A DNA stretch of 64,000 bases from an uncultured Planctomycetia bacterium (GTDB lineage: Bacteria; Omnitrophota; Gorgyraeia; 2-02-FULL-51-18), in assembly GCA_964642015.1 (NCBI GenBank), contig CAZXLF010000001.1, forward strand, positions 43,946 to 107,945, in the 5' to 3' direction. A program made the translations under genes and the position numbers. Within the stretch, counting starts at the first letter, position 1. Each line of letters starts with the position of its first letter. Of the stretch, positions 5,840 through 48,849 are shown one piece after another. The notes under the pieces were generated by a model. The model made no database searches and was not told where the DNA came from. It saw only the letters and a list, made by a program, of their open reading frames with translations.

Positions 5840-6239
5840 TAAAGCAAAGCTCCGAACGTTTATAGCGCAACAGTATACAAAAAAGATAATGGCAAGTCAA
5901 CGCAGTTGGTTTTGATGGTTTTAGCGGAACGAAAAATTTTGGAATTTGTTGCAAAAGAGAATAAAAGCTAAGACAGGGCACGTAAAAAAGAGCATTTTCT
6001 ATCGCACAAGCCTTGACCACTATCTGGGTTCGTTCTTAGTGAATCGGAAAACTTGGATTTTTACAATAAAACACCTCAAATTTTTCAATTTAATATTTCA
6101 TAATATATTGAAATATAAAGAGTTATAGTTTATTTAAAGCGGTCCGAATATTTGTATTTTGACAGTATGGTCATGTATACTTTTGTTAAAATACGCTCAT
6201 GTTCATTTTGGTTCCACACTCTATAAATATTAATAGACT
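5840..6239. promoter_or_regulatory. AT-rich divergent intergenic region between the minus-strand nuo operon and the giant gene; promoters expected
   Basis: 400 bp of high AT content. It contains TTGACA (6159-6164), an extended -10-like TGtTAAAAT (6184-6192) and TATAAAT (6223-6229) only 11 nt upstream of the giant-gene ATG. No clear SD precedes that ATG. Confidence 0.3.
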
Positions 6240-6323
6240 ATGGCAAGAAAACACAAACAAATCATAAGATCCCTCTCTTTGCTGTTGGCGGTTTCTTTTT
6301 TTGCGTCGGAACTTGCTTATGCA
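6240..6323 (+). other. Sec-type signal peptide of the giant protein (MARKHKQIIRSLSLLLAVSFFASELAYA|AP)
   Basis: Basic n-region, hydrophobic h-region and an A-Y-A signal-peptidase I site. Confidence 0.6.
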
Positions 6324-9300
6324 GCACCTATTGATGCGCAGGCAGTGAGAGAAGTTCCGATACAAATCATCGCTCAAGATCCCACGCGTTTTGAAGCACC
6401 TGTTTCTTTTACAACTCTCAAGGAAATTCATAAAGGCAGCGAAAATACTTTGATCATTCATATTCAGGATGCGCATGCGAATTATAGCGGTCAGGAAAAT
6501 TTAGCTAACGCACTGGATGAGCTCATGACAAAGTACAAGATCAGTTTAGTTCTTGTCGAAGGCGGGACCAAAGACGATACGTTGACTCCCATTAAAAAAG
6601 TCGCATCACCCTTGGTTTGGAAAAAAGTTGCGAAGAAATTTCTTGGCGAGGGAAAGATCACAGGCGAAGAGTACCTTAATCTGATCTCTGATCATCCGAT
6701 GAAGATCATGGGGATCGAGGATAAAGCGCTTTATATGTCTAGCTTGAACGCTTATAAAGACCTGGCCGATAAAAGGGAAACAACCTTGGGCTATCTTAAG
6801 AAGATCCAAGCCGCAGTGGATAAAGTTAAGAAAAAAGTTTATCCAGTGGAACTTTTGGATTATGAGAAAGAAAAAAGTAAAACAAATACTGTGCTTAACG
6901 GAACACCGGCGTTCGAGAAAAATTTTGAGATTAATTTCAGGGGATTAATGAAACTGATTGCCGATATTCAAAATGCGGACAGCCATGGAGAGAATTTCCT
7001 GGCACCTTTTCCCGATCTTCAAAAATTAAAAGCCATTCAAGAAAAAGAGAGATCGATTGATTTTGACGCGGCCAATCTGGAGCAGGCGGCTTTGATAGAA
7101 GAGATCCAAAAACGAGGGGGAATTGAAGAGTTCAAAGATTATCTGAAGAAGCTTGGTCAGATGAAGGATCAAAGAGCTTGTCAATTTGCCTACTTTCAAA
7201 ATACTTTAAATATAGCCAAAAAAAAGGGGATCTCGATAGAAAAGTATCCCGATCTGATCATTTATGGCGAATACCTAAAGAATTTTCAAGAATTGGATTT
7301 AGACCTTGTGTTAGATCAGTTGGAGCGTGCCGAGGACCAGGTTTACGTAAGGCTTTTTCAGCGCAATGCCAAATTTCAGAACGACGCTCGCCTAGTCCGG
7401 TCAATAGACCGTTATATAGGTCTTCTTGATACTGCATATCGGATCAAGATGTCGACCAAGGAATTTAACCTCTTCAAAGTTAATGAACCGGATTTTACCA
7501 CTCCCAGTTATTTGGCTTTTCTAAATCGTAAGCTAGCCGAGTATGGATATTTTCAAGACCTGATCCCGTATCAAACAAAAGAGACAGGCAATCCGCTTGA
7601 AGAAGGAAAAAAAGCGTTGGAGGCGTTTTATGATTCCGTGAATCAAAGAGATATGGCATTTATCAAAAATACCGAAAGAATTTTGAAAAATGAAAACCAA
7701 CAAGTAGCGGTGCTTATTTCGGGAGGTTATCATACGCCGCATCTTAAGAAACTTTTCAAAGAAAAAAACTATTCCTACGCGGTCCTCACCCCTATCATTA
7801 CTTCTGAAACCGATCAGTCTAAATATGAAAAAATATTGCTCGAACCGATCAAAAAGGAATCTAAGGTTGTTGAGAATGTCCAAGGCGAGCGCAAGTCACA
7901 GGATAAATCGTTGAGCGATCTGGAGGAAGATTTGATCAAGCTTAAGAAGCAGTCTGATCAAGTCAGGCAAACGGAATTAGTGGAATCCGGTAGCCGACTG
8001 GCTGAGGTGTTGAAAGACATTGAGGCTAACGGAGCAGGTGAAGAAGCGGTTGCTGCGGCAAGTTTAAATCTTTTAAAAAATAATCCACGATCGGCAAGTG
8101 AGCCAGTTCCGGCTATGGCGGATACAAAACTCGCAAGCGCACCGCAAAATATTCCTTCCGGCGCACGTCTCTCATCTCAAAACGAAAATACCGAACGGCC
8201 AGACTCACGAGAGGTGAGAGGGACATTGCTTTTGGTTGAGAAAAGTTTTCTGTTGCCGAACTGGCTCGGTCTTTTTCTGACCAAAATACTGTTTCAATTC
8301 TATGCCAAGCGTAATTTTGGATTGATCAGGTGGAATACCAATACGGAGATTATCTGTCTGCCTTGGTCTGACCAGAAAATACGCGATACGCATCCAGAAT
8401 ATCATCGGAAGTTGTGGCAAGAATGGAAAGATGCGCACGGCCGCTATGACGATTGGAATGTGACGGTCAATCTGGTGAGCCGTTTCATGCCGACGCCTGC
8501 GGCAGTAGCGGTCTCGATGGAAGAAAAAAATATCAATGTTTTCATCAAAATGTCGCTATGGGATCGTCGAGATCTTTTTGGGCATATATTTGACAAAGCA
8601 GACGAATTTATCCAGCAAAGCGAATCTTCTCATGCCCAGGGTTCGCGGCTTGCGTTGAATCGTTTCAAGGCGCCTGTCTATATTGACGAGAAGGACTTTG
8701 ATAATGCGAACAGGTCATATCTTGATCGTCACCGAGATCAGTGGCAATGGATCCGAGAAAATATAATGCCGTACCTGATTGAACGGGCCCTAAAGAGGGT
8801 CCATGGATCTGAAAAACCAAGACTTGATGTGCTTGTGTTAGGCGCAAGCACCGGAGAAGAATTAGCTAGGACATTTTATGAAGTCACTACGGATCTTTCC
8901 GCCAGAGGTTATGATCCTAATCAGTGGATCTTGATGATTCATGGTTTTGATTCAGACCGGAATGTAGTTTCCGAAGGACAGAAAAGATTAAGAGGCCAGT
9001 CACCTTTCATTGGTGCGCGGCCCTTTCAAACAGAAGCGCAACTGGAGGATTATGCGGGGCGTGTCGTTTCACTGCTGAATCAATATCGTGAGAAAGTAGC
9101 AGAGAGTTTATTTTTGCACCAAAGAAATGTTCTGGATATCGCGCCGCTGAAGAATAGCTTCCCGAACGCGGACATTATTCTTGTGAATCATCTGATGAGG
9201 ATCTTGAAAAATAATCAGCGATTGGCGCTTATTCAGAATTTGAGTTTTGAATGGAAAGATGCGCTGCTTGCGATAGGTGATATGCCTAAATTCGAAAATG

Positions 9301-12300
9301 ATTGGCAGTCCCGAATGCAAAATCATATTTTGGAAAAATTGCCTCAGACCTCTACAAAAGAAACCCAGTATTTCTTTGGATTGCCGCAAGGCTATGTTGA
9401 AGAAAAAACTCATCCTGAGGGCGCGCGGTTAGCTGAGGAAAATAAGATACAATTTGTAACCGACAAAACTCAATATCCAAGACTGATCGTCAGTGTCGAA
9501 TCTTTAATAAGTCAATATGAAAGCGTTGACAAAAATGTCTCTGAAATGCTGCCAAATATTCAAAGCGATCTGCAAAACCCGCTTGCGGTATGGGTGGTCC
9601 GGGATGCTTTTAACCGCATCATCGGATTTAAAACTCTGAAAAAACCCCAATTTATCCAAGGCCTGACACAAGAAGCTCAAGATTTGATCAATGCGGGAGA
9701 AGGAATTGTTACCGGAGGATTTGTTGTGATGCCTGAAGCTCAAAGGCAAGGCCTTGGAAAACGTCTTATGGAGGAAAGCTTCCGGTACATTCAGGGTCTG
9801 GAGAAGCAAAATATACGCTACTATCTTGCCAGCATCGCATCTGACAATGCAGCATCATTCCGCGCTATTCACAGCGTTGCCGCTCAAATGGGTTTGACGA
9901 TGTACGGCCCATTCGTAAATGAAGGAAGCCGTCAATATGAATATTTGATAGATGTTTTTCCTGACAAAGCGCTTGGCGGACAAGCGGCCAATTTAATACA
10001 GCGTATGAATGCACTTCCGTCGAGTACAAAGGAAGCATGGGATCAGGCACAGCAAATAGCTGCTGGTAAAAGCGGCGGCTCCGCAACAGGCGCTCGTCTG
10101 ACCGGCACTTCAATCCAATGGGGAGACCAAGCGCCTATGCCTAATGCGGCTGCACACTCTTTGGCTTTTAAATCCGAAGATGAGATCGCCAAATTTATTC
10201 CCATCTGGCCTTTCGGTCCCCGAGTAACAGTCCGCAAAAATTCAGACACTCACATAGCGCTCTCCATTCGAGACAAGCGATTTAACATGATGACGATCGA
10301 ATTAAAACAAGATCCGTCAGATGAACATATGGTTTTTCTGGGGCATGGGCGGCCTGTTTATTCGGATCAGAGCTTATTACCTTCCGGGACGTCGACGGCA
10401 TCCTCAAATGCAGAGGCTTCAAAGCAGATTTTGTCACCTTTGATCAGAAATTGGATGAACAAATTTCTGCCCGATTGGTTGCTATCGAGAGGCTACAACA
10501 AGATCAAAGTTCAAATTCTATTTGATGATTCTCCGGAATTCTTTGATCGATTGGGCTTTAGAAGGCTGGACGACATGCATATGGTAAAAGACATCACACC
10601 TTCCCAAGGAGCTAGATTGGCGAAATCGACGATTGCGGGAGTGGAGTTGCCATTTGTTTTTTCCGATGCTGTCGGAGCCAATGGATTGTACGAGAGCATT
10701 ATATCGGATGCTAACGATGTGGCCGAGCAATTGCATAAATACATAGCCGAAACTTCCCGCACTAACCGAGAGATCGTGGATACTTCCACGTTAGCCATGA
10801 GTTCCGTAGCGCAAAGCGACCAAGTATTGCCGACGGTCTATATCGGAGATTTGCATGGAAGACTCGATGTTTTGTACGGCATTTTAAATGACGTGGTCGT
10901 CATTGATGGCAAAAAAATGAAAATCATCGAAGCGCTTTTAAACCGTCAGATTAAACTGCGTCAAGTGGGCGATAGTATCCACCCCGCCACAAGTAATAAT
11001 TATGAAAATAAAGAGGAACATTTAAGGAGTTTTGCGACTTACGTTTTTCTGATCACTTTGAAGAACCTTCGGCCAGATCTGGTGGATATTGTGATCGGTA
11101 ACCATGAAAATTCTGTGCTAAGCCGAGCGACTGTAGGTAAAAAAGTGCAGGACCGGTTGTTAAACTTAGGTGCATTTTTTAAAGAATCGATTGAGGATAG
11201 AAATAGCTGGCGAGGAAATGATTGGACGCAGATCCAATTCATGGACGACCAAAATCAAATGGTGACCTACAGCGCTGCCGAGACCGGCCAGCTATTGTAT
11301 GCCTTGTTTGCCAGAAGCGTAGAAGACCTCCCCGTCTATGTAAGGGATAAAACTTTTGACTCGACAATAGGAATGCTACACGCCGAAGTTCCATCAACAG
11401 ACACTGTTTTTACTTTGACTGATATGAAGGATGTATTGAGCAAGCCCTATTTGGAAGCGCATGGCATTGATCCTGATTATCTGAGGGACGCCCCTAATCA
11501 GCTTTATCAGCAGTTGCTATGGAACCGGAACTTTCAATATGACCCCCCGACAGGAGTGAAGTACTTAAACGCTTTTGCGGGTGATCCGCAAAAAGGAGCC
11601 GGGCTTATTTTTTCGGGCCACACACCTCCTTCGCATTTTTCTGATATGCCCGCAGAAGGAGTGTTGGTCTTGAAAGATCAGGCGGTCCCGCTTTTTGTCA
11701 CCATCAAAGATCCTCAAAGCGAAGCCAAACAGATCATTGGCGATGCCAGCGGAGATTACGACAGGGTCGGATACCTTTTGGTTGATGCCAGAAAAACTTT
11801 ACCATCTAATCCGCTCGATTTAAAAGCCCCTGATGATACTTCAGCTTTCAGAATTTTGGACCTTCAAGGCGCGTCTTATGTTTCAAGGCCTTTCGATATT
11901 GGCGCAGTACGCGCCGCAATTCCGGCATACGTCCCTACACCTGCCGATGCCAGGCAAGATCCGCGCATTTTTCGTGCGGGCACGCTTTGGTTCAAGATCC
12001 GGCTTCTAGGTGATGGTAAAATAATTTTGATCGACCCAGCTAGCAATGCTCCTTATGTTTCAACCGTCGCATCGGAAGTTTTCCCTGGCCATCCCTATCG
12101 AATAGGCAGAAATGTGGATTTTGAGGGCACGTTCCCCAATATCAATACTGTCTCCAGAACGCATGCGGAAATTATCAAGGATGGAGATGAATACAAGCTG
12201 GTGGATACCAATTCCAGCGCCGGAACTTTTGTAGGCGCTAAGCAGATCGTGAATCAAAATCCGGAAGTCTTGAATTTTGGCCCGCAGGGCGCCCGGTTGG

Positions 12301-15300
12301 CAATAGAACGGAATGAGAAAAGAGAAGATCTTGCTCGACGTCAAGCGGTGGACCGGATCATTGGTGATGTCACGGATTACATTAAATTCGAAAATGAAAT
12401 GAATAAGATCATCGATAAGATCAACCAGGGGATTCCGTTGAGCCAAACGGATGTGATCCGGTTGCAAGATAAATTAGCTTATCGTCTGCAGCTCAAAAAT
12501 TCTCTCGTGACGTTAAGAATAAAGGTGCATCAAGGCGATTATATCGTGGCTTTCAATCAACTCGGCCTTAAAACTCTGAACGATCTTCTCGGCACACCTG
12601 GCAATGACCGGGTCATTGCCAAGAGGCAGAATCTATTGATCAAGCTGATGACAGAAAATGGCTTGATTTCCTCTGGACGTAGCGAACGTTTAGAAAAAAA
12701 TTATAAGCAGGATAAATTCGTGATCCGGTCTTCAATCATCAGTAAACTCGGGATCGAAGAGGTCCAGAGAAGGTTGGATCTGGTATCAAAGGCTCTATCT
12801 GATCGGATGTCGAAATTTTTGATAGATGAGTACGGTAAAGAAAAAATGGTCAATTTTAAGTTTCAAACCTTGTATGGGATCAGCAATAAGGTTGAGAACG
12901 AAGATGACCAGGCCAAGATCACGTCAGACATTCAAGCGCTGCAGGCTTCAAAGATGGGCAGACGTCTTTTTGAAGAAAAACAAGTGAACGGTGAGCTTAT
13001 CTACGGAGCGAAGTTCAATCAAAATCAATTTGATGCACTGCAGCGCAGAGCTGCTTCTTTGGCGGAAGATTTAGGGATAACGCCTCGTCATTTTTTAAGC
13101 GAGATAGAAATGTCTGCGGTAAGAGGGATTTCCGAGGTGCAGATCCGGCAGGCGGTTTCAGACAAACGGATGCTCGAAAGAGATCTAAAGATAAAAACTT
13201 ACCTTGATATCATTGATCTGTTCGATTATCCGAAGACTTGGCCCGGGGCTGTCAGCGAGCGCACCGTTCGCGTGGATGAGATCCAGGCTTTGGTCGAGCT
13301 GTTTTTGAAAAATGTCAAACCGCGCGCGCCTCCGGACCAGCAGTGGTCAGTTGCAATACAAAAAGCTTTGGCTATTCTCAAAAGGAACTCAAAAAATCCT
13401 TCCATTACATCCGGAGAAGCGTTCCATGCTTATGCATCCGGGATCTCCGCCGCTGATCAGGAAAAAGGAAATGTCCACAATCATCGCTTTGTCGCCGTTG
13501 ACGTCATTGGATTTTGGGCGAGCATTCAAAGAAATCTGGGGAGAGCTCACGCGGCGTATTTTGATGCGATGCAACGAAATGCGCCGTCCGTTCAACGCCG
13601 TCAGGTACTTACTGACGAGGTATTGAAGGCTGACGACAAAGTGAAGAAGATGATCGCCGGTAAGATCAGACAGATCGACGGTTTCGTGAAGGCTGTCGGA
13701 GTTGAGCCTGAGAAAATGACATTGAACGACGGCTCTAAGGTATCAGCATTTTTCCAAGAAGGCGGCGACGAGATCGTTTTTATGATCCCGCCCAGTTTTG
13801 ATCTCAAGAAGACCAACGAACTTTTAGCCAAGATCCGTGCGCGTGGAATGGCCGCAGAAATCAGCTTTCAAGATCGTCCTGAACAGTCAACAGTGGCGCT
13901 CGGCCTTGCCCTTACCGAAATTAGAGCGGATGCTTTCGGAAGACCTTTCCAGAGCTCTCAAGCCGTTCAGGCGATCGATGCTTTTGTTAACGCCCAAAGC
14001 GCTGACGGATTGGCAAAGGAAATCGAAAAAGCGGGCGAGAAAGGTTTTGTTTCCTACGAGATCGTCAATCAGAATCAAAAAGCGAAACTTGTCCGCGAAG
14101 GAAAAATGACTGAGGGGAAGGACCGTGCATGGTTTGTTTATCGGCAAGCAGGCGCAGCCTCGCGGCGAGAGTTTTACGCAGATTACGCGAATAAAGTTCT
14201 AGCCGGAGCTCGTTTGGCATTCAAAGACTCCATGTCACAAGCGAATGAGCATGTCCAAAAAGCGCTTGAGATCATTAGAACAGCAGACCTGTTCTCAAGA
14301 ACGGATGTTGAAACTGCGCTAGAACAGATAGTTGAACAATTATCTCGAGTCGAGCAAATTCTTGCAGGCCAGAATGTTGATGAATCTGATCTGCTCCCAA
14401 TTCAGGCAAGACAAGATCTGGTGCAGGCCTTCTTGACCGCTATTTCGGTAATGAGAGACATCGATAAACTTACCGGGCTTTCGCTTGATCAGCGTTTGGA
14501 GCTTATCGGACAGTTAGCTAGAAGCGGATACAGCATTAATGATGCTTATAACGCTCTCTACGGAAGGCCAATAGGCGCTCGCCTGGCATCCCTGAGAGCG
14601 AAGTTGGTCGTTGCTTTTGCAGCTCTTGCAGGTGTCATTGCATTGATCTCCTTTGCGCCGAGACAGGCGCCCATCAAAGCCATAAAGCCTGCTCAGATCG
14701 AACGCATTGAGTCTAAACCTGCGCCTCAGCAGACAGAATCGCAAAAGACGATTACAGAAAAAGAACAGAAACCCGCAGACTTGCAAATATTGAAACAACA
14801 TGCGGAAGAACTTAAGAAACAATCCGATGATTTAAAGAAACAATCCAAAGTCCTTGAAAACAAAGCCATTTATCTCCAGAAAGAAAAAGAGCGGTTTCAA
14901 GAGAGTTTCAATTACCTTCAAACGGTTTATCTGCAGCAAATGCAAGTAAGCTGGTCTCTTGTCGGCGGGTTGAACCCAGAATCCAAGGTTGGGACAACGT
15001 TTGTTGATACGACCATCAAATTATTAGGAGGAGAAACTCTCAGAGTCCGTCAGGAACATGGCGTCTATCGTTTTCCAGAAGGATTTAACGTCCAAGATGT
15101 AAAAAGCAACGCAGCTTTTTCGCTGAATGAGAAAGGTATGATAACGGATCAATATGAAAATCTGGATAGCTTACCGGCTGAGATCCGTAAGGATCTGGAT
15201 GATATCAAGAAAGGATTTGCGTATCGCGGTCCGCAGTTCAGCGATCTGGCTTTGAAGCTGAATTCGGCTCTGGGTACTACCAATTTTAAAGCCAGTCATA

Positions 15301-18300
15301 TCCAGGAAATGCAGGGCCTTATCAAAGCCGGCTCATCTGTGGTTCAAGCTATTCAGAGCGTGGCCGATAAAGAGAGGATCACGATCAATACTGAAAATCT
15401 GAAGTCTGTGCCTGTCGAGCGTTTCGGAGCGTTGCTTCCGCACGCCGGCAGAGTCTATGCAAGGTATTTCGATTATATGATCGTTGATAAAAATCGCCAG
15501 ATTGTTGCGGCTTTTCGCAGAAAAAATTTGGAGAAAGGCGCCTCATTCAGAGATTTAGAAGTATTTCCCTCTTCTTTTAAAGATGAGAATCCGCTGCTTT
15601 TCGGAAGTTTTTTCAGCTATGACGAAAAATTTCCTGCTTCGATAGGGCGGACCCCGACGGATAAACGGGGTTATGAAATCGCCCAGAACAGCAATAATGA
15701 ATATCTTAAAACCTCTGAAGGAGTGCCTCTTTATTGGTTCAATGAGGATAAAGAAACGGGAGAGTTATCTGTATTAGACCGCGGCCGATACGCGCTAGTG
15801 TTCTTATCAGGAGTACGGCATCCGCTTATTCCGGATAAAAAAGGACCCATTAGCTATGATAACGGCACTCAGGTGACACATTTTAAAGTTTTGCCTGATT
15901 TATTTATCATCTCGGGATCACAAAGACTTCTTTGGACCAACCATTCAACTCTTGAAGGCCGAACAGTCGAGAGATATGAGAAGGCTTTGAGGGAGGGGGC
16001 GTGGTTTGCTCCTATAAAGTCCCGTAAGATGGCAGGGTGGAACGTACGTCCGCAGAATCAAGCTTTATACCCGTATTTTGAATCCCAAGAGAGCGACAAA
16101 GATAAGATCAAAGAAGAGACCGCTGAATTTGCGCGGAGAGAAGCCGAATTAAGACAGGCAATAGATAATGAGTCAAAAAAGCCTAATCCAGATTCTGAAA
16201 CATTGAAACTTCTGCAAAATGAGCTGAAAAGGCTAGGCACGCAGCATTTTATGATAGATGCAGATGGTTATATGCATGCAAGAACTCTGCCGTGGAAGCA
16301 TCTGCCGGGGGAGATGGATCGTATTGGGAATGAGCTCAGGGAAGTCGAGGGACAGAAAAAGGAAGCAGACGCTAACGAGGCAAAGATTAATGAACAGATT
16401 CAGGAGGCTTTGCAACAAATAGAAAAAATAGAAAAGGGCGCACTTCCTAATCCTTCACAAGTTGCTCCGGCCGGAGCGCGCCTTGCGGAAACACCAGGCT
16501 TCCTTTCTGAAAAATTGTTGGTCGAAGTAAAGAAAATAAATTCGCTCCGAGATCTCGATAATATCAATCAGTGGTTATCTTATGAAATCGCACAAAATCT
16601 GATCACCCCTGAACAGGTGGTAAATGCGTTGGCAAGTATTATCGATGATCATGGCAATGATGAACTCCGAGGGCCTTTTAAAGATATTGCTGATGCGGTT
16701 CAGAAATTGGTCAATGATCTGGAATCTGAGATGCCCGGATCTTTTAAAGATCAGTTGCACCGCATCTTGTTCAGCGATAAGAATTCGGTGAAAGAGATCA
16801 TGACTGTTATCAATCCGGATGGAATGCACATGAGGCCTTCTTATGGCGTAGCCCGATTATCATCAAAAATTAAAGATGAATTGAGTCTCGATGTTTATAT
16901 TCAAAATCTGAACAGGCATCAAAACGAGATAACGCATGCAAGCGAATCACTGTCAATGCAGGCTTTGGGAATTGAGCAGGGAGCGCAGATAAGGATCATC
17001 GTAACAAAGAGCGCTGATAAGCAATTATTGGCGAACGTTATTCAGATCATAAAAGATTTCCTTTTGGATGTCGCTGCACAACAAAATCCAGAGAGCCAAT
17101 TGGAGCCCTATCTAAATAGGATAAAAAATCTTGGCCAAACATCCAATAACGGCGCACGGCTTGCAGAGGCGGAGAACCAGGGAGCGATCTCCAAGGTAGT
17201 TCAATCTTTCTGGCGATCATATCGACGGGCTACTTATAAATTTTTACAAGCGCCGTTGCGCGTAGATGATCTGATCATTGCCGTCAACATCATGGATCTT
17301 GGCGCAGAGATCGAAAATGGCAGGGTGGTCACCAAAGACGCATTGAAAAAATTAAGGGAACTGATCCCTTCACTGAAGAAAATGGGCGCCGGTAAGGTTT
17401 ATATTTACGGTGGACTTTATCAGATGAGCGGTATTTCAAAAGGACTGCACTCAGACCCGGGTTTAAAACCCAGAACCGAGAATGGAGCCACTGTGGTCGC
17501 CGGCTATGACACCAAAAAAGAGACCGTAGACGGTATTGAATTCACCGATCGTTTTGGCAATCCTTTCTCAATTATGGGCATGGAAAATTTTAATCCTGAA
17601 CTTTCCAGCGGAAATGCCGAGCAGGATTACGCGAAAACCGTAGAGGCTCTGAAAAAAGAAGGCATTGAAGTTGTCGCGGATCTGGTTCCTTGGCTTTCGC
17701 CCAGCGCGATCAACGAGACGAATTACAAAGCAACATTTTATAGGGAGCTTAGCGGTGGATTGAATGACGAATTTCGAAGTGTGTCCGAAGAAAATAAAGT
17801 GAAATGGCTTGACGAAAAGGTCTTATCCAACAATCCTGGCTATGCCGCTGTTCGTATCAAAGAAAGAAATAATCAAGGCGCGCTTCAAGAAAGGGTCATT
17901 TTGGTCAAGCGTCTCGGGTTTTTTGGAATAGACAGCGGTGACCAAGTCATATTAAATCCTTTTCATCCGTGGACGCAGCAATATTATACGGATGCGGTCA
18001 ATAAGCAATTAAGTTTGGGAGTCAAAAATCTGCGCATTGATCTCGGCCATTTGGTCTTGAAGCGCCACATTCTCGGCTATTTTGATGAAATGCGAACAAA
18101 ATTATCCTCGGAAGGAAAAAGCATGGAAGATTGGCTCAGAGAAGCCGGTACTGATATCCAGCCTGGAGAAAGTTTTGACAGCTGGTTTCACAGATCTCCC
18201 GAAGTGTGGCGCGAAGTGATGGACAGGATCAGCGCCGATAAAACCCATGGCTATGATTATAAAGACATCAACCTCATCACTGAATCATATGATTCAAGTC

Positions 18301-39300: not shown

Positions 39301-42300
39301 AAACCCGTAAGACGCGTTTGGGCCGCAGCGGCATCTTATTCAGAGATGGTTTGCCGGTCGTTTTGGAAATAGGGAATACAGAATATTTGATCAGTCTAAA
39401 AGGCGCTGGCACTCCTGAAGCAGAATTTGTGATAGAAAATGGCGTGCTTGCAGGCGGGATGTCTAAATATCACGCTAACTATGAGATTAAAAACATGGAT
39501 TCAAGGCCGGATATCGTGGATCGCGTTCAGGCAGCAGGGAGTCTTTCGTTCAACGGCCGAGTGGCAAATTTACCTGTTCCATTCGATATGGGGCAGGCTG
39601 TTTCTTTTGTCCCAGGCAGTCTTCGTTCATCGTTCATGAATAATAAATCTCTGCCTCAGATCAAAACTGAAGAGCAAGCCAGACAGATTGCGCAAGAGAT
39701 CGGGCGACTTGTAGTGGAAGGAAAGATTCCGCTGACGCACGCTGAAAATTTCATCACCGTAGATAAGGGATCTAAGTTGGTGATCACGGATTACTCAGAC
39801 ATTCATCTTATTGAGGATTTTCCGTTGGTGTTGGAAGGGCGCGAATACAGTCCGATCGAAGCCATCAGAGCCAGTGTGCAAACGATTACGGAATTACCAA
39901 TGTATCAAGATTATGGCCCTGCCTATTTTAACGTGTTTCTGGAAGGATTGGCGGAAGGCCTGGCCGAGAGTGGGAAATTGAGCGAAGACCAACGAAAGCA
40001 GCTTTTTGCTTCGAGGAATTTTGAACAACTAGCAGATTTTCTCTGGACGAACTATTTGGTCACAGATTATGTGAGATCGCGGAAAGAAAGAGCATGGATC
40101 CCTTCGGCATTTTCACCTTTCCAACCCAAAGAAGGCGAAGATATTATTCAGGGGTATATCAAGTACACGCAGGGTCAGGCTCGAGCGGTATACTCCGCTC
40201 TAAAAGACCGCGAAAGATCTTTGGAGTTATTACCTAAGAATGAATTGGTCGAGCAGGAGCTTCAAAGGACCCAGAGCGATATTCAGGCGTTTGAGTTCAC
40301 GAATTTCGAAATAAGGAAGATCATCGCTTTGATGCTGAAAAAGATGACGCAGAATGAAGTATTCGCGAGAAATCTTCTTGAGAATCCCGAATTCATGGTT
40401 TTTGCGCTTTCGACTTACTATGGATCGGACTACAGAAGATTTATTACGGGCTATTTGAGCAATCCTAATTACCTGAATTTACTTAAGGCTGACATCGGTT
40501 ACCGCCTATCGACTAGCAATGGCGCTCGTTTAGCGGACGAAAATAGTGCGGCCTACGAACTTTTGTCCGCAATCGGTTTGCGGGATGTCCGTTTCTTCAG
40601 CAAGATCGGCATTGATCTTCGAGAAGGTCCTGAAGGAACGGCGATCCAACGAATCCGCATTCCCGAACAAACTTTCAAGGCGCCGATTCCCGAAGGGTTG
40701 GACATCTTGCGGCAAGAGCTGGCTGATACGAGGGAATTCGACCTGATCTACAATGATGAAGCGGAAGTGATCGCGATATTTCCTGCTCCTACCGATGAAC
40801 TGAAAAAGGTCTTGGAGAAATCGAAAGTCCAGCCTCAATATTTTGACTTGAGTCATTTTAATTTTGAGATCCCTAGGCTTGATGATAAAGAAGCGGAGAA
40901 AAAATGGTCCAATTTTGCAAAGAAGTGGGAGAGAGACCAAAAGGCGATCAGTGAATATAAGAGGCAATATGGAGGCGAATTTTCTTTTGGTGATGCCGGA
41001 AGTCGTTCCAGACCGTTCGTCTACGCAGCTCTGGACCAGCAAACCGGAGAGATGGATGCCAGAGAATTCCCTCCGAGCAATTTCAGCTATATTCTTGAAA
41101 CGTCTAAAAAAGCGGCCGGCAAACATCAGATCATATTCCCGGTTTATCCGACCGTTTATTCACCGGCGGGCGGGAATCTGGCCAGTGATATTCATTATTT
41201 TACCGCGATCTCTAAAGATGAAAAGTTCAACCTGAAAGAAAACGACGAATTATTAGTTGTAGGGCCCGGTTCCGGCATCGATGCGTGGGCAGCTTCGTTC
41301 AAGACGAAAAATAAGATCTACGCTATTGGGATAAGCCCGTTAGAAATTGCGAATTTGCGTGCGACGCTTAAGATAGCCGGTGCGGATTTTGAGGCGACGG
41401 CTCACGATAATATTATTTCAAGTGAAGGCAAACCCGCGTTTGAAAAACGTTTCGATAAGGTGATGTGGAATGCGCCTTATTACGATGATCTTGTTAAACA
41501 GCCGAGACAGTTCAAGCATTATTGGGACGGAGACTTTGAAGCCCGCTCACTCAGACGTTTCGCAGAAGGATTGCCCAAAGTTGTTAAGCCTGGCGCCGAC
41601 AGCAGAGTGCTTTTATGGGGCAGGGCTTATCTTATTCAGCCCGTCGCTTCTTTGCAATACCCTCACAGTGGTTCCGTCGATCTTTTTGAGGAGACATTGA
41701 GGACAGAAGGTCAATTCAACGTTGTTACGAGAAGTCTTTCAGATATAAGAAGCAAGTTCAACTATCGTTTAAATGTGTCCAAAGAGTACTTTTTGGATCA
41801 CGCCGCCGGCGAACGTGTCGGCGCCTCAACGGCTATCTATGTGGTCTCCGGTTTTGAAAATACAACAAGTCAACCATCATCTTTGGCAGCTCAGGCAGTT
41901 GAGGTGAAGACAGATCAAGCGCTGAGAAGCTTGAATACTTTGGCGGATCTGTTGAACAGCGGGTACCGGACTTCAGCGGCTATTCCGCCCGGCACACTAA
42001 TCAAACCAATAAGCGATCTTGAGCCGGATATCACGGAGCCGATATTCCGTATCGCAGAAACTTTTGATAATCCAAACAAAGCTGACCAGGTTTCTCGCAT
42101 TGATCGGGCTGTCGCGTCGATCAATAGAGAGATCAAATCTTTGGGTTTGGCTTTACGTTTTGACGCGGGAGCCGGGAAACCATTTATTGTTGAAAGGTCA
42201 AGCACCGCATCATCGCCTCAAGGCACACGGCTTGCGGGCGGACTTGCTCCGCGTGACGAAGGTTTAGAGCGGCATAATGCGGATAAAAGAAAGTATTTGG

Positions 42301-45300
42301 CGAACACGGATAATGTTGCTGCGGCATTGCTAAAATATATAGCAGGCGATCGTGACAAAGTGACCCGTATCGTCTATCCGGCAGCGCATTACGATCAATT
42401 GGCTGTATTGAGTTTGGTCAAGCTGTTTCCGAATGTGCGTCAAGTCGTGGTCATCTCGCTTTATGGTGTGAATGGTCCTGAGGGTTTAAAAGATCTTCAA
42501 AAGCGCTGGACGCAAGGTTTCTTTGAGAGAGCCGAGCGGATAGGATTGAACGCAGAAGAACTTAAGAAGAACATCGAAATCAAGATCGTCGATCAGGATT
42601 ATAACCTCGCCGCAGAAGTTGCTGCCACACGCCCCCCGGAGGGTTTGACGGCCATTATTGATAAATATCCCGGGAGAGATTCCTCTCTAAGGGCAGACCC
42701 TCGTTTTCGCCGATCCATATTGAGAGATACTAGGCCCGGAGACCTGATCTTTTCGTTGAGAGATAATCTAGTGCCCGGTTTAAATTGGTCGGACAAGCCT
42801 ATCGCAGAGAACCTGAGCGTCCCATTTCTTTATGAATCACAGAACAAGTGGAGCATTACCAGATTTTCTGAAAAAGATTATGAAACGCCGGCCGGCGCCC
42901 GTCTTGCGCAAGCAAAACCTCGCTATCTTCATTGGGATAACGTGATGCGTGATCTGGTCGTGCAGGATACGGATCTGCAGGGACAATTAGTGGCGGAGCT
43001 TGAAAAGGAAAAAGCGCTTTATGATAGGAGCGTTCGTGAGGGGATTCCTTATTCAAAGAAGAAGCTTTTTGTCATCGGCGCAGGAGCCGGCCGCGCACTT
43101 TATGACTTATGGACGCGTTACGGAGCGTTTCTTGAGTTTACCGTTATTAACAAGGAACCGCTTGAAGAGATCAATGCTCCTGAAAATGTTTTTCTTGATT
43201 CGGTTTTAAGCGCTTATCATGGTAAAGGCAGGTCAGATGAAGAGATTGCGCGATCCGTTAAAGAATTCCGTTCTTTCTACGCGCAAAATGCAAAAGCTTT
43301 AGATATAGAAAGCAAAGCAGTTAACGGAAAGTATCATTATGTATTGCTTTCATCGGCCGTGATGCCTTATCTGCAAAATAAACTTAAAACGGTCAATAAT
43401 CTAAAAAATATGCTTTATGCGGGCGGAACCGCTTTTGTTTCGGACTTCGAAGGCGTTGTTTTTGATGATAGATCATTTACTCCAGGTTCGTTTTTCGCGT
43501 CGTTGAATCAGCAAGAAGCCGTTTTGTTGGGGCTTGAACGACCGCAGTACAATCTGTTGGAAGGAAAAACGCCGGCGCTTATCGTGAAAAATCTCAAACC
43601 AAATGAAGACTTGCCCGTGCCGAATTTAGTTGAAGCGAGAAAATTGGAAGAACCCGGTTTTCCCGCACATTATGATTCTATTTACTCGGTCCGTTCTGCG
43701 CAATCGCTTTTGGGATTTGTTTCTTCGGGAGCACGGTTGGCTTCGGCAGAACAAGAGGCGACCGTAACGGCGGAACAAGGCATTCATTTCAGACCGCTTG
43801 CGGATATTGCGCAAGTGGCTCAATGGTTGAAACAAGACAATGGAGTCACTCTTTTCATCAGGAAAGCCGATCAAGCCAAATTTTCGCAGGCCGAAAGCAT
43901 GGTGGCGATGCTGGCATTTGGCGCAAATAAGGACGAAAAGATCATCGTAAGGGGTGAAGCGCCAGAAGGTGTTTCCGGGGAAAAATTAAGCGAAGCCGTT
44001 GAGGTTTTATCTGCGCTGATTCGATCGAAAGATATCGGAAGCATGGCGATCGACATGTTTCGGTTCAACTACAAACAGAGGATATTGGAAAATGCTCGAA
44101 ATGAATCGGGCGCGCGGCTTTCCGCAGAGGATACTAGGTCAGTCGTTCTAAATAAGGCGCTGCGCAATTTGGTCCAGCATGTGATCAATAGCAGAGCCCA
44201 AGCGCTGCAGACTTACTCCAATCCCGGCATTAAACGAGCGTCGGATGAAATATCCGCTGAAATACTTAGCCAAGTCAATGAGGCTCGTGTTCAACTGGCA
44301 GATCTTGCCGAGGTCTTTAGGCCGGCATCACGAAGGCCGCTATTAATTTTAAGGACCGAAGGCGAACCGCCGGCCATTTTTGTCAAGGGGCGCACGCCGG
44401 GGTTTGAAGGCAAAACCGGCGAAGAAATTTCCAGAGCAGAGCTGAACCGAGCGGTTGACTTACAGGCTGTTGAAGAGATATTGAGCCAGGGTCTTTCGGA
44501 ATTCGATAAAACGGCGGAGCCTTTGATGGCCGAGCTCCAAACAAAACCAGCCGATCTCACAGATGCGAGAGGTCATGCATTTGTGTTAGTGGACATCTTG
44601 GTGAATATTGTCGATCGCATCAATCAGCACACGACTGATCGGCAGAGCGGGCGATCTTTTATTTCACAGTCTGTCCAGGATGTTCTAAATGATGAGTTAA
44701 ACGCCCAAATCGCGCCGGAGGTGCCGAGGTCTTTTATTTTCAAAATAGACTCTGCCGGTGTGAAAAATGCGTCACAGGAAATGAGCGATAAGCATCAACA
44801 TCGGCTACAGAACAAAAATTGGAAAATAGTTGGTACGGGTATTTCAGGTTTGATCTCTGAGGAACAGGTGGAGACGTCGATGCCTTTATTAACCACATGT
44901 TTGACATGTCCTGCGGTCTATATTTATAACACAGAAACCAGGGAGACATACTATGCACACTCGCTTGGTTATGATTTTAGAGTTTTGCGGGCGACGTTAA
45001 ATGATGCGAAAGAGCGTTTTCAGAAGAACAAAGATAAAGTGGTGGTGTTCGTAGGTGGTAATACATTAACGACTGTTGCTGGGGTGGGATGGACAGAATC
45101 AACTTTGAAAGAAAGACAGGCTATTGTGAAGGAAATTTCAGACGCTGGATTTAAGCCGATCGTGGCTTTTCCGCATTTCTCTGGATTAGCGATAGAGCCT
45201 TATTTCGATGCGGCCGATGGTATCTTGATTATTCAAGAATACAATGCTTTCACGGGGCCGGGATACGGCTTGTCCGAAGATAGGTTTTTGGAATTTTTGC

Positions 45301-48300
45301 GGTCAGGTGCACGGCTTTCGCAAAGCGATATTACGCTTCAACAAGAACTCCGGAATTTCCATGTAGAGTCAAACGATAAAAAAGTGGATTATTCTAAAGT
45401 AAGTCCCGAAGCGACTTGGGTCATGCACGGAATAAGAGACGTAGAACGAGGCGTGATCATCACGGATATGGCTCAATCGCCTGAAGTCTCGTTGAAATAT
45501 CCTTTTGGAGAAAATTTACCGGTTGTAGCGCCGCCTGGTGAGAATTCGGCCGGAGTTTTTCTCAATATCGCTGCGATAAACAATATTTCACAGCCGGTCG
45601 TTATTAAAAAGTTTCTCAGCGGCTCGACGAACGCATTCATCCGGCGGGAAATCATCAATTCCCAAGTGTTGGATCGTTTAGGTGTGGGTCCTCGTTTTTA
45701 TGGCGTCGTCAGAAATGGTTCAGGAGCGATTGTTGGGTATGCCATGCAAATAGTGAAAGGTGAGTATGTGAATGGGTTATTGGTGATCGGCAAAAAACAT
45801 CCAGATGTTATCGAGATCCGGAATAGACTCGAGGGGATCGGTCTGTCATCAGTCACAGATTATATTCATACACCTTCGGACCGTTATATTGTGATCGACG
45901 CGGGAAGTGTGGAACCGCTGGATGTTTTTGACAATGGAAAATTCGAAGAATTCATTAGAGAATCTTCCGGCGCCCGACTGTCTTCGCAGAAGAAATGGTA
46001 TCAGGAGGAAGTTCACGAAAAGCTCGACTCGAAACTTGTGATGAGCAATTTGGAAAGGATCCGCGCGATCTTGGGAACGATCCTGCATCAAATCAGCAAT
46101 CCTGATCAATGGCTCGAAAAAGAGCATTTGGAACCGGTAGTGATCCGTCAATATGGCCGTGCGATTAAGAGGTTCAACGACGTGGTTTTAAACAAAAAGC
46201 ACATGACAGTGTTGCAACTCGAAAAAGAATACAAACATCTTCATGCGCTATTGGGTGAGAAGGGCTATATTCGTAGCCCGGGCGATTATGTCTCTGTCAA
46301 TGAGCAGGATGTGAAGGAGTTATTTGAGTATCTTTTTTCTGAAAGCACCGAGCAAAAGATCAAAGTAGATGAGGCAGGCGCGATTGATGTGGCGGCACAC
46401 GTCTATGTGACCCTTGTGAATCTCCAGCCTTTTTATGACGGGAATAAACGGACAGCAAGCCTCATTATGAATTATGTCTTGATGAAGTCTGGATACACAC
46501 CATTCATTCTTAATGAAGACAATGTCGTGCGCTATGCGGAGATCGTATACCCGGTCAATGAAGAAAATAAGATCTCAGAAAGTGCATTCAGAGAATTTTT
46601 GGAAAGTCAGGTTCAGATCTCAGGCGCGCGGTTAGCAGCCGCACCGATTCATGACAATGAAGCACAAAGGTTGAGAGACTATTTAACTCAAGCACATTCT
46701 GTTTCGACGGTCAATTTGGCCCACACGATCGATAAAAATAATGTTTTGCAGGCATTCCATAACGGTCAAACGTTGGAATTGGCGCTCAATGATGTTTACA
46801 GGCGCGGGCAAAATAATTACTTATTGATCCGCGAAGCGTTGGATCAGATCTCCGGTACGCTTGCGGGTTTTCCGGAAGAAAAGCAGGTGATCTTGGAGCT
46901 TCTCACGAATGCTTTCGCGCATGGTAATAAGCAAAATCGGAACTTGCCGATATTTGTCCGCGCGGATTTTGGCGTGTCCGGTGAGATCCGGAATATCGAA
47001 GTGTTTGATACAAAATCGAATGCAAATGTGAGCCCGCAAGAGATACAAGCCGTAAAAGACGCTGGTATTGCATTTGCAGGCGAAGGTATTTCGAATATCG
47101 CTCAGCATGGGTTCTTTTATCAAAGGCAGGATTTGAAGGGAGATAATATTGTGATCGGGACCAAAGCCACTGCGACAAGGCGAGAGCAAACGGCTCCAGC
47201 TAAAGTTGATTCAAGTGCAAAACCGGAAGAAGAATCCGCTTCGAGCTTTGGGCAAACTTTTGGTGCAAGGTTGGTCAGTAAAACCAGCGCTTCACCATCC
47301 GAAGAGATATCGCATCCTGTCATTCGAAATTTATTCCTGGGCATTTTGTTGGAACGTGCCGAAAAGGAAGCGGGCGAAAAGCTGAATTTATTGGGCGATC
47401 AGGGCATTTTGACATTTACAGTGCAGCCGCTGAAAGGTCGCGAAAATGAATACGCACAGATCAATTTTCTCGCGGGAGTCGATGCGGCGTCGCCTGTGGT
47501 CCATTCCGAGATCATCACCCAAGCCGAACTGAATGCGTTCAGAGAAGCGCAGAAGAAGATCGAATTGGGCAGATCTTTACAAAAGACGGAAGTGGCCAAG
47601 ACAGAACTTTTATCCAAAATATCTCAAACACCCGCTGTTCAATTACTCTCTTCCGAAAATGAGATTAAGGCGGTTACTTTTGAAGAAAACCGCCAGATGC
47701 GCGTCTTCGACAATGCCGCGAATGTCATTTTGTCCAAAATCGGCAAATCTTCTCTTGAGGGTATGCTTGAGGTTAATGTGGATAAATTGAACGTGGCCAA
47801 TGCATCCGAAGTCACAAAGACGTTTGAACAGAATGTCGAGATTCTGGCCATTGCGATCACCGCCATTAAATCTGACGCGCGTTACAAAGATGTTAAGCTC
47901 CATTTTTACAGCGCTTCTAAAAACGAGGCTTTAATGGCTCATGTCAGCTCGATTACTAATCTTTACCGGTATCAATCAAGCGAAAATGAGGTGCGTGCTG
48001 CGCTGAAGGTCAGGATTACCGGCTTGGATGATATCGTCAAAGACATCGGTTATGCCAACATCGCCAATGCCGAAAAAGGTTATTTGCTGCCGATCAGGCC
48101 GATCGTTCATTACGCTATTTATCTTTTGAGTCTTAAGAATCTTTCGCAGGCGACTCCTTTGGATGTACGCGAATCGGTGATCCAGGAAGTCCGCCGCTTG
48201 TCGGGCAATTTCACGGACAAGGACCTCGAGAAAGAGAATATATTGGGCTTTGCGCTTGGTATCATCAATGATGTCAATAAGAGCGTTGCGGACAGATTTA

Positions 48301-48383: not shown

Positions 48384-48392
48384 GGCCTTTCC

Positions 48393-48421
48393 TTTACAAA
48401 CCAAACCGAGTGACCTATAAT
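48393..48421 (+). promoter_or_regulatory. Sigma70-like promoter for plus-strand nuo operon: TTTACA -17 bp- TATAAT
   Basis: TTTACA at 48393-48398 and TATAAT at 48416-48421, separated by a 17-bp spacer. It lies 50 nt upstream of the nuoA ATG. Confidence 0.5.
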
Positions 48422-48430
48422 GCCTCTTTT

Positions 48431-48439
48431 TGCTATAAT
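48431..48439 (+). promoter_or_regulatory. Second, extended -10 element TGcTATAAT upstream of nuoA
   Basis: TG at 48431-48432 and TATAAT at 48434-48439. The SD AGGGGAC lies 5-11 nt before the ATG at 48472. Confidence 0.4.
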
Positions 48440-48471
48440 AGTTCTTGTAATAGATTATTTTCAGGGGACTT

Positions 48472-48849
48472 ATGGAACAGCCCGGCGAATATCTAGGTTT
48501 GCTTGTCACTTTCCTCATCGCGGTGAGCATCGCGGCGCTCATTATTTTTCTAAACGGGCTATTAGGTCCAAAAAACAAATCTTCTAAAAGTAAATCCGAG
48601 CCTTTTGAATGCGGTGTCGCACCCGTAGATTCGGGACGCAACCAGCCTGCCGGATTTTCGGTAAAATTCTATCTGATCGCAATGTTCTTTATCCTTTTTG
48701 ATGTCGAGATCGTCTGGCTTTTTCCATGGGCGGTCATCCTAAGAGAATTGAAATGGATTGGCATCATTGAAATGTTCTCATTTCTCGCGGTACTCGCCCT
48801 TGGATTTATTTACGCGTGGAAGAAGGGAGCGCTAGAATGGGAAAAATAA
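48472..48849 (+). CDS. nuoA: NADH-quinone oxidoreductase subunit A (second paralog)
   Basis: NuoA motif FYLIAMFFILFDVEIVWLFPWA. Confidence 0.85.
   Translation: MEQPGEYLGLLVTFLIAVSIAALIIFLNGLLGPKNKSSKSKSEPFECGVAPVDSGRNQPAGFSVKFYLIAMFFILFDVEIVWLFPWAVILRELKWIGIIEMFSFLAVLALGFIYAWKKGALEWEK

Follow-up and report, generated by a model that had tools for sequence, protein, structure and literature searches.

A delimited, cysteine-depleted giant protein of an Omnitrophota bacterium as a possible exported polyprotein

Giant genes of the Omnitrophota are among the largest known, and whether their products work as one chain or are cleaved is an open question; cleavage points have been lacking, which has prevented the splitting of such proteins for structure prediction (West-Roberts et al., bioRxiv 10.1101/2023.11.21.568195). 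The same question is raised by a gene in a stretch of 64,000 nucleotides (nt), referred to below as the window, from an uncultured bacterium that GTDB places in the Omnitrophota (assembly GCA_964642015.1, contig CAZXLF010000001.1, positions 43,946 to 107,945 of the forward strand). The gene is a single open reading frame (ORF) on the plus strand, nt 6240 to 48383, which encodes 14,047 amino acids (aa) from ATG to stop without a stop codon across 42,144 nt; an initial annotation had given exactly these coordinates. The protein carries a signal-like N-terminus and a conserved head domain, is divided by a four-residue motif, Gly-Ala-Arg-Leu (GARL), and is nearly devoid of cysteine. The reading preferred here, held at somewhat less than even likelihood, is that the chain is exported as a polyprotein and that cuts at GARL yield enzymes directed against a host or prey cell.

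It is exceedingly improbable that the frame is an artefact, either an assembly chimera or open non-coding sequence. Giant genes often break assemblies and most relatives of this one run off contig ends, but nothing else favours this explanation, and it is opposed by a frame open for 42 kb, by more than ten significant domain matches in that one frame, by conserved catalytic residues, and by the recurrence of the same plan in relatives from many samples.

The division of the protein is defined by the following sites.

8160 to 47273, plus strand: 34 GARL sites of 12 nt each, starting at nt 8160, 9420, 10089, 10608, 12288, 14205, 14574, 16473, 17151, 19833, 20502, 22836, 23598, 24717, 27981, 29232, 30147, 31335, 31749, 32541, 33393, 34188, 35205, 36135, 37089, 38901, 40521, 42894, 43728, 44109, 45306, 45969, 46623 and 47262
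aa 584, 801, 10256, 11420 and 11995: five variant sites, GSRLA (aa 584 and 801), GVRLA (10256), GYRLS (11420) and GTRLA (11995)
7863 to 8159, plus strand: low-confidence linker from the head to the first GARL, holding the variant GSRLA at aa 584; predicted local distance difference test (pLDDT) below 50 at aa 542-595 and 612-640

The 34 occurrences of GARL compare with 0.48 expected from composition, and at 32 of them Ala or Ser follows directly; around the motif there is no conservation except for a small residue at position -1. All six Arg, all six Leu, all four Ala and three of the four Gly codons are used. Because the sites draw on all the synonymous Arg, Leu and Ala codons, it is the peptide, not the DNA, that is under selection, and a DNA or RNA signal was ruled out on the same ground. 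A signal-peptidase I site and a lipobox were also rejected, as no hydrophobic stretch precedes the motif and it contains no Cys. GARL splits the 14,047 aa into about 35 units of 123 to 1,088 aa. No site falls within a Pfam envelope, against about 6 expected (P about 1e-3), and the homology blocks shared with the cassettes of relatives begin and stop at GARL. For example, a 127-aa unit with an HPr domain pairs with a 127-aa unit of relative L013, the module W32 pairs with aa 2716-2945 of L012, and the modules W25 and W28 pair with adjacent units of L003. A peptide-selected delimiter at the borders of domains and homology blocks thus provides a concrete rule for splitting giant proteins.

The motif is a property of a family. 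A search with the first 1,200 aa found 31 proteins, all the named ones being from Candidatus Omnitrophota or Omnitrophica, names that the syntenic loci bear as well. The relatives comprise 13 loci in GTDB genomes and at least 413 in metagenomes, of which 79 loci were retrieved; no family member was found on viral contigs. In 94 loci with 207,911 aa in total, GARL occurs 256 times against 9.4 expected, and in most relatives a GARL site follows the head. The variants of the delimiter are specific to individual proteins: GTRL occurs 10 to 12 times in L055 and GARM 13 to 14 times in L082, GARM recurs in L060 and L073, and GARA is found in L001. The majority variant of its own protein is present at 77% of the sites, compared with 65.5% when the labels are shuffled (maximum 67.8% in 2,000 shuffles). 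Such specificity fits a reader that is encoded in the same gene. Judged by its sequence pattern, a motif of four invariant residues whose flanks are not conserved and whose variants are protein-specific would be typical of a recognition site and not of a passive linker. Neither the GARL motif nor an Omnitrophota polyprotein was found in literature searches.

The N-terminal region and one internal helix bear on export and on the possible reader.

6240 to 6326, plus strand: signal-peptide-like or signal-anchor N-terminus, MARKHKQIIRSLSLLLAVSFFASELAYA/AP; hydropathy peak at aa 8-26, AlphaFold2 (AF2) helix at aa 4-28
6327 to 7862, plus strand: conserved head (aa 30-541), with an alpha/beta core resembling TIKI/TraB/ChaN/erythromycin esterase and a helical insert of about 320 aa (aa 162-485)
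14604 to 14660, plus strand: the only strongly hydrophobic internal segment (aa 2789-2807), LVVAFAALAGVIALISFAP / GARLASLRAKLVVAFAALAGVIALISFAP; Kyte-Doolittle 19-residue mean 2.45

The signal-like N-terminal pattern is kept across an alignment of 27 sequences. From the same number of sequences the AF2 model of the head reaches a pLDDT of 80, and the stretch between the head and the first GARL is disordered. The parallel beta-sheet alpha/beta core of the TIKI/TraB superfamily is seen in the head, and D77-x-H79, E107 and H498 are invariant in the 27 sequences. These four residues match the 2His/2Glu set of RRSP (E3900, H3902, E3930 and H4030), with the same 28-residue spacing from His to Glu (PMC6254334); the first acid of the set is Asp, not Glu. 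It is probable, therefore, that the head has a TIKI/TraB-like fold. RRSP and Tiki1 are proven endopeptidases of the TIKI fold (PMC6254334, PMC8191133), and Tiki1 takes eight residues off Wnt3a (PMC8191133). By analogy with these two enzymes the head may be a protease, and its nomination as a candidate makes the cleavage question directly testable. The Tiki1 cut in Wnt3a is said to lie at a Leu-Ala bond. The head differs from the TIKI/TraB/PrgY/GumN/ChaN/erythromycin-esterase superfamily in its insert of about 320 aa, in the Asp in place of the first Glu, and in the lack of a significant match to the TraB model of Pfam. The insert itself (aa 162-485, nt 6723-7694) is all-helical, and its best Foldseek matches are the ClyA-type alpha-pore-forming proteins AhlB, YaxA and SmhB, which are not significant (E >= 0.1, probability <= 0.28).

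The third distinct property is the cysteine content. The giant protein has 7 Cys in 14,047 aa (0.05%), compared with 0.91% in 364 neighbouring ORFs across the loci, an 18-fold depletion. Across the family the mean is 0.14%, and in one relative a fragment of 6,782 aa is free of cysteine. Of the seven, one is the catalytic Cys6956 of an Enzyme-I-like module and another is the invariant Cys10103 of W25. Because the depletion spares functional positions, it points to selection against cysteine. Depletion of this kind is usual in proteins exported from the cytoplasm or translocated in an unfolded state. Together with the retention of catalytic residues, it may therefore serve as an independent and easily surveyed marker of giants leaving the cytoplasm. 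Two more of the seven form a CxxC pair at aa 12887-12890 (nt 44898-44909), within a module of aa 12624-13022 that has no recognisable function; this pair may be a metal or redox site.

From these properties we infer that the chain is cut, which protease cuts it, that it is exported entire and that it acts in another cell. The N-terminal signal would direct export of the chain, and cleavage would fall at the GARL sites, most likely after Leu, with the head domain of the same chain as the most likely cutter. About 35 nearly cysteine-free proteins would be released: an acetyltransferase, methyltransferases, PPP/FHA pairs, P-loop and GHKL-type kinases, an RNase, an Enzyme I (EI)/HPr pair, a Doc-like protein, and many modules of unknown fold. 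The targets of these products would be proteins and RNA of the cell, host or prey, to which the episymbiotic bacteria attach. In the bacterial N-end rule, N-terminal Ala and Ser are stabilising and Leu is destabilising. A cut between GARL and the following Ala is favoured, because cutting after Leu would expose Ala or Ser, while cutting after Arg would expose a destabilising Leu. The most specific form of the mechanism, in which an N-terminal TIKI-fold protease cuts its own chain at G-[ATS]-R-[LM]-[AS] and frees dozens of cysteine-free enzymes against a host or prey, is possible and rather doubtful. If true, such a self-processing polyprotein would be the first Omnitrophota giant protein with a defined cleavage code.

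To identify the units, the protein was cut into 1,000-aa tiles, which were scanned against Pfam (with strict and relaxed thresholds), NCBIfam and the PDB sequences. The following modules, all on the plus strand, were recognised.

9525 to 9857: GNAT acetyltransferase (aa 1096-1206), motif A QRQGLGKRL; Pfam Acetyltransf_1, E 3e-6
10815 to 11852: PPP-type metallophosphatase 1 (aa 1526-1871), GDLHG, GNHE and IFSGHTPP; motifs and internal BLAST to PPP 2 (E 7e-8), no Pfam match
12096 to 12275: FHA domain 1 (aa 1953-2012); Pfam FHA, E 9e-10
16794 to 17054: HPr-like module 1 (aa 3519-3605), GMHMRP; Pfam PTS-HPr, E 1.7e-7, and NCBIfam matches
20559 to 21809: metallo-beta-lactamase (MBL) + beta-CASP + RMMBL nuclease (aa 4774-5190), HAHLDH; Pfam 5e-21, 7e-17 and 1e-10, aCPSF1 5e-61, PDB CPSF/RNase 1e-39
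25824 to 27266: phosphotransferase system (PTS) Enzyme-I-like module (aa 6529-7009), with phospho-His and phosphoenolpyruvate (PEP)-binding domains; PEP-utilizers_C 2e-28, PTS_I_fam 5e-23
30648 to 31043: class I S-adenosylmethionine (SAM) methyltransferase (aa 8137-8268); Methyltransf_12 9e-4, Methyltransf_23 0.004, MTS 0.01
37260 to 37907: PPP-type metallophosphatase 2 (aa 10341-10556), GDVHG and LFSGHTPP; Pfam Metallophos, E 8e-7
38709 to 38882: FHA domain 2 (aa 10824-10881); Pfam FHA, E 6e-18, FhaB 1e-16
41232 to 41603: HemK2/MTQ2-type amino-methyltransferase (aa 11665-11788), NAPY motif IV at aa 11744; TIGR00537, E 8e-7
43065 to 43727: SAM methyltransferase (aa 12276-12502), paralogue of aa 8154-8371; internal BLAST, E 4e-11
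43749 to 44024: HPr-like module 2 (aa 12504-12595), GIHFRP; Pfam PTS-HPr, E 1.5e-7, in a GARL-to-GARL unit of 127 aa
46224 to 46535: Fic/Doc-type module (aa 13329-13432), QPFYDGNKRTA; Pfam Fic 8e-9, XopAC 3e-9, DOC_P1 3e-5

Recognised domains amount to about 19% of the giant protein. The initial annotation had read by eye a toolkit of signalling and effector modules with internal paralogy, and this observation is largely real and partly confirmed. Every literal motif quoted in it is present at its given position, and the general character of the inventory holds, with protein- and nucleotide-modifying and phospho-signalling modules, some types occurring twice. The GNAT, the beta-CASP MBL nuclease (with strong Pfam, NCBIfam and PDB matches), the Enzyme-I-like module and both HPr-like modules were borne out by profile matches, as were three of the three to four SAM methyltransferases proposed, the one with the NAPY motif among them. 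Of the two metallophosphatase modules with FHA domains, both FHA domains and the second phosphatase are found by Pfam, and the first phosphatase is recognised through paralogy and motifs. Module-by-module inspection of catalytic residues, which that annotation had proposed, found them kept in EI, HPr, the nuclease, PPP, GNAT and FHA, the exception being Fic, for which the Doc-type fold is supported by profile. In particular, the active-site His of G-x-H-x-R-P is intact in both HPr modules, and the core residues are kept in both FHA domains. In an alignment to E. coli EI, the His of the Enzyme-I-like module falls on His189 and its Cys6956 on the catalytic Cys502; the PTS_I_fam match spans positions 147-549 of the 565 in the model, so that the N-terminal HPr-binding alpha subdomain is not matched.

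A second set of modules, again on the plus strand, was recognised by weak profiles or by motifs.

8640 to 9419: module with the CheR-like motif LDVLVLGASTGEE (aa 801-1060); motif kept in 3 homologues
19890 to 20006: P-loop NTPase 1 (aa ~4551), GIGPGVGKST; AAA_16 E 0.002, guanylate kinase 0.04, NB-ARC 0.3
27582 to 27959: GHKL-like motif set (aa 7123), EIVLNALDA ...; motif level, no profile support
29640 to 30128: P-loop nucleotide-kinase-like module (aa 7801-7963), Walker A GRPGVGKT; (d)CMP kinase E 0.001, AAA_18 and NB-ARC 0.03
32007 to 32540: GHKL-like ATPase module (aa 8590-8767), ENVWQHA, DRGQGF, GGNAGNGL and GTKVVF; motif reading, homologue HATPase_c E 0.006
45306 to 45968: kinase-N-lobe-like module (VVIKKF), unconfirmed; Choline_kinase E 0.25, five family homologues
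46827 to 47189: GHKL-like motif set (aa 13553), ELLTNAFAHG; motif level, no profile support
47262 to 48380: C-terminal tail module, also the last module in the complete relatives L052 and L040

Both P-loop modules, proposed as kinases, thus receive weak profile support. Among the four GHKL ATPase-like copies that had been counted, the one at aa 8590-8767 is weakly supported, two stand at the level of motifs, and the fourth was not found by a hidden Markov model (HMM) of the three GHKL-like sequences. The module at aa 8590-8767 has all four boxes of the Bergerat fold (N, G1, G2 and G3) in order and 14 homologues among 1.84 billion protein representatives; the HATPase_c match (E 0.006) occurs in one of these homologues, on the homologous stretch. 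The module alone has no match in the PDB, and a profile of the 14 sequences gave weak PDB matches (E 0.05-2), 24 of 26 of which are to Hsp90, TRAP1 or RsbW. For the CheR-like call, the motif is present and conserved in the 3 homologues and a profile search of the PDB found nothing; from its motif the module is a putative methyltransferase. The kinase N-lobe call was not upheld, with Choline_kinase at E 0.25 as its best match and an empty profile search of the PDB, and the proposed GH13-like TIM barrel has no profile match. A phmmer search of aa 1-2900 against the PDB gave no match.

Much of the remainder is dark. Within aa 8366-9565 (nt 31335-34934), GARL sites bound five modules, and for four of them there is no homologue at E <= 1e-3 in the 1.84 billion representatives; the fifth is the GHKL-like module, which also exists in stand-alone versions (P0044, 210 aa; P0045, 366 aa), in line with the polyprotein reading. 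Five dark modules searched as a chimeric query, and aa 12497-13674, likewise have no homologues in a word-indexed database. AF2 applied without an alignment to aa 13023-14047, which covers the kinase-like, Fic, GHKL-like and tail modules, gave a pLDDT of 33. The array of about 35 units, most of them without a detectable homologue among the 1.84 billion representatives, is therefore a source of candidate new folds or effectors.

The paired modules do not appear to be recent copies. A duplication inside the gene had been deduced from the FSGHTPP motif shared by the two PPP modules, and this deduction is unsupported. Internal paralogues are only 23-25% identical. Each HPr module matches a cassette of L013 better than it matches the other HPr module, and for the FHA end of the first PPP+FHA module the match to an L060 cassette is stronger than that to FHA domain 2. 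Since the copies are nearer to the cassettes of other genes, where relatives are available, than to their own paralogues, recent within-gene tandem duplication was rejected as the origin of the pairs.

The inventory allows two readings in which nothing is delivered to another cell. The first is an uncleaved, membrane-tethered multi-enzyme scaffold whose modules signal in cis, with GARL as a linker or docking motif for a chaperone, translocon or partner. Such a scaffold would account for the partner pairs, namely EI with two HPr, PPP with FHA, and GHKL-like modules resembling RsbW, and for the intact catalytic His and Cys of EI and His of both HPr; moreover, membrane association is predicted for 94% of long Omnitrophota proteins, and methyltransferase (MTase), HATPase and GNAT have been grouped as a signal-transduction module (Nielsen and Lui, bioRxiv 10.64898/2026.06.07.730766). 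It is nevertheless unlikely. No STAS, PP2C, receiver domain or Enzyme II component was found, and the EI profile match lacks the HPr-binding subdomain. A scaffold should preserve the order of its modules, yet order and content differ completely between positional orthologues; GARL resembles a recognition site and not a passive linker; and the cysteine depletion is left unaccounted for. Partner switching in particular (an RsbW/SpoIIAB-type kinase with STAS and PP2C) was rejected, with neither STAS nor PP2C at E <= 5 and one GHKL-like module weakly RsbW-like. Sugar-specific Enzyme II components are absent from the giant protein and from the window.

The second is a cytoplasmic polyprotein, cut at GARL for the regulation or metabolism of the producer itself, which would gain compact co-expression from one promoter and export only some of the products, such as the module W08. 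The signal- or anchor-like helix of W08 (aa 2789-2807) begins 10 residues downstream of the GARL at aa 2779 (nt 14574), and would become an N-terminal signal or anchor if the chain were cut there; this arrangement suits cutting before export, and it is among the grounds for the preferred reading as well. The recognisable enzymes all need cytoplasmic cofactors (acetyl-CoA, SAM, ATP or PEP), and the stabilising residues exposed by a cut after Leu are in keeping with use at home. On the other hand, the conserved N-terminal signal on the head would direct the protein away from the cytoplasm. Conservation is expected of housekeeping functions, whereas the arrays turn over between close relatives and four of five modules in aa 8366-9565 have no homologue. 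Nor is the cysteine depletion relative to the 0.91% of the neighbours explained. This reading is accordingly given a low probability, similar to that of the scaffold.

The initial annotation had likened the mix of modules to the arsenals of multifunctional toxins, with an enormous partner-switching or phosphorelay scaffold as the alternative. The delivered arsenal fits better than a housekeeping phosphorelay scaffold, because of the signal-like N-terminus, the 18-fold cysteine depletion, the delimiter, the turnover of the array and the effector-like matches; the part of the analogy that fails concerns the features of MARTX and polymorphic toxins given below and the catalytic His of the Fic module. 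Among the effector-like matches, the best ones of the Fic module and the head are to the type III effectors XopAC and HopBA1 and to the MARTX effector RRSP.

The exported polyprotein may be compared with known systems. Giant proteins of Omnitrophota have been described in two preprints (West-Roberts 2023, bioRxiv 10.1101/2023.11.21.568195; Nielsen and Lui 2026, bioRxiv 10.64898/2026.06.07.730766), and the gene belongs to this described class, to which the initial annotation had not assigned it; its inventory alone is therefore not new. It shares with the class a length of at least 10,000 aa, the phylum, a signal-like N-terminus with a putative transmembrane segment, many Pfam families with dark stretches between, and unique sequence. 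A multi-enzyme class, with many distinct Pfam families of which none dominates and with co-occurring MTase, HATPase_c, GNAT, HAD and HD, has been distinguished among the long Omnitrophota proteins, of which 5,761 have at least 10,000 aa (Nielsen and Lui 2026, bioRxiv 10.64898/2026.06.07.730766); the present protein has about 12 families including MTase and GNAT, a weak HATPase_c, and no HAD or HD match. The flanks differ from those of the described giants, being complex I genes and not type II secretion, pilus or CAZyme genes. Two types of West-Roberts 2023 were rejected. For the Archaeovorin type, no SecA_DEAD, glycosyltransferase, glycoside hydrolase, peptidase or NUDIX match was found at E <= 5 in any tile, the protein has fewer than 30,000 aa, and it has one strong internal hydrophobic helix as against many transmembrane segments; for the Dockerin type, none of the Pfam families was matched. 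The delimiter, the TIKI-like head and the cysteine depletion are absent from the texts of West-Roberts 2023 and Nielsen and Lui 2026, and together define a variant that these texts do not describe.

In MARTX toxins, which stand with the large clostridial toxins among the closest known systems, processing at a short Leu motif within the unstructured linkers sets the effectors free (PMC2900308). Like MARTX, the giant protein has an array of enzymatic effectors, linkers with a short motif of Leu followed by a small residue, and content that is shuffled, as it is between strains in MARTX, and MARTX possesses in RRSP an effector of the TIKI fold. The MARTX motif is small-Leu-small, while here P2 is Arg; the array has about 35 modules compared with up to 5 in MARTX, and the putative protease is N-terminal and of another fold. 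The viral polyproteins of picornaviruses and alphaviruses are similar in having many units in one ORF, a short conserved motif that co-varies within the genome, and a protease in the chain (putative here). They differ in that the present gene is cellular and chromosomal, with no relatives on viral contigs. Polyvalent proteins and polymorphic toxins (Zhang et al. 2012, PMC3482391) share the conserved N-terminus, the exchangeable enzymatic cassettes, and conflict-type modules (Fic/Doc, nuclease, methyltransferase and acetyltransferase).

Several observations weigh against the exported polyprotein. From MARTX the protein differs in having no RTX/HemolysinCabind match, no Peptidase C80 match and none of its 7 Cys in a recognised C80 context, and no type I secretion signal; its flanks hold no type I secretion genes or acyltransferase, and membership of MARTX was rejected on the lack of RTX repeats, C80 and type I secretion genes. 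Unlike polymorphic toxins, it has no C-terminal toxin with an immunity gene, no Rhs, filamentous haemagglutinin or PAAR, and no mobile element, and secretion-system genes in general are absent from the flanks. About 80% of the protein is without recognisable function. The Fic module keeps the Doc-type NKR and has Gln where the catalytic His is expected. Some head-bearing relatives (L040, L041 and P0039) have few or no recognisable delimiters. As to the head, its matches to the sequence models of the TIKI superfamily are below threshold (DUF5694, E 0.0018; Cofac_haem_bdg, i.e. ChaN, E 0.073; TraB not significant), and Foldseek against the PDB found no significant match, only helical bundles. 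Alternatively, the head could serve as an esterase or for binding, as ChaN, EreC and HopBA1 of the same superfamily are not proteases. Finally, should the head be periplasmic and the aa 2789 helix act as a stop-transfer segment, most of the GARL sites would be cytoplasmic and beyond the reach of the head.

This problem of topology leads to a further alternative, that the sites are cut by another protease, which may be W25, a separately encoded peptidase, or a host protease after delivery.

36135 to 37088, plus strand: W25 (aa 9966-10283), fold unassigned, with invariant Cys10103 and His (TSHxxxC...MLSH); Cys and His kept in all three homologues

W25 keeps these invariant residues in an otherwise cysteine-free protein and, to judge from them, may be a Cys/His enzyme, perhaps a peptidase. 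Activation in the host cytosol has precedents in MARTX, whose protease is activated by InsP6, and in TcdB (PMC2900308). Still, the W25 profile has no match in the PDB and corresponds to no known peptidase, and W25-type modules were found in only 2 other sampled family members, whereas head and delimiter occur throughout the family. Moreover, delimiter variants that are specific to single proteins fit a reader in the same gene. A cutter other than the head is consequently considered very unlikely.

The turnover of the array is evident from the relatives, which share only the first ~590 aa (33-68% identity) and beyond them are unrelated save for scattered cassettes. Complete members have about 1.5 to 3.8 thousand amino acids (kAA), and many others run off their contigs. 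The family plan is a signal-like N-terminus, a head of about 540 aa, hypervariable cassettes bounded by G-A-R-L-[A/S], and in some members the tail module. In four relatives (L003, L006, L007 and L013) the head gene occupies the same position, divergent from nuoA; the flanking Nuo proteins are 67-89% identical to those in the window, the heads 39-54%, and the arrays are not colinear. A second insertion site lies between two epimerase genes (window 60961-61040, a gap of 79 bp). It is empty here and is filled in L004, L005, L010 and L015 by a head-family gene of about 1.9-3.7 kAA. Two head-family relatives, P0003 and P0006, contain an intein splicing domain (PF14890, E 7e-19) and no exact GARL; P0006 has GARV. 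P0030, a predicted protein of 673 aa from a 2.6-kb JGI contig, carries the initial ~200 aa of the head joined to NuoC/NuoD domains, which reflects either an assembly chimera or a rearrangement at the junction of nuo and the giant gene.

The genomic setting of the giant gene is as follows.

1064 to 5839, minus strand: complex I (nuo) cluster nuoA-B-CD-H-I-J, upstream of and divergent from the giant gene
48816 to 57428, plus strand: second complex I cluster, nuoB-C-(TPR protein)-D-E-F-G-H-I, downstream
58591 to 59046: stand-alone EVE-domain protein beside an O-methyltransferase; Pfam E 2.5e-53
18699 to 19187, 40530 to 41126 and 47976 to 48641, minus strand: antisense ORFs of 162-221 aa inside or overlapping the giant gene

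With chromosomal nuo genes on both sides and no viral relatives, a phage or plasmid origin was rejected. The upstream cluster has nuoCD fused and is without nuoE, nuoF and nuoG, which are present in the downstream one, where the TPR protein lies between nuoC and nuoD. On the 3' side of the downstream cluster follow the EVE-domain protein, the O-methyltransferase and then the two epimerases. No tRNA genes are present within the window, and the antisense ORFs are probably shadow ORFs. GC content and skew are even along the giant ORF except for a lower GC in its first 2 kb; in the head-encoding region (window 6001-8000) the GC content is 0.393, compared with 0.44-0.48 over the remaining ORF.

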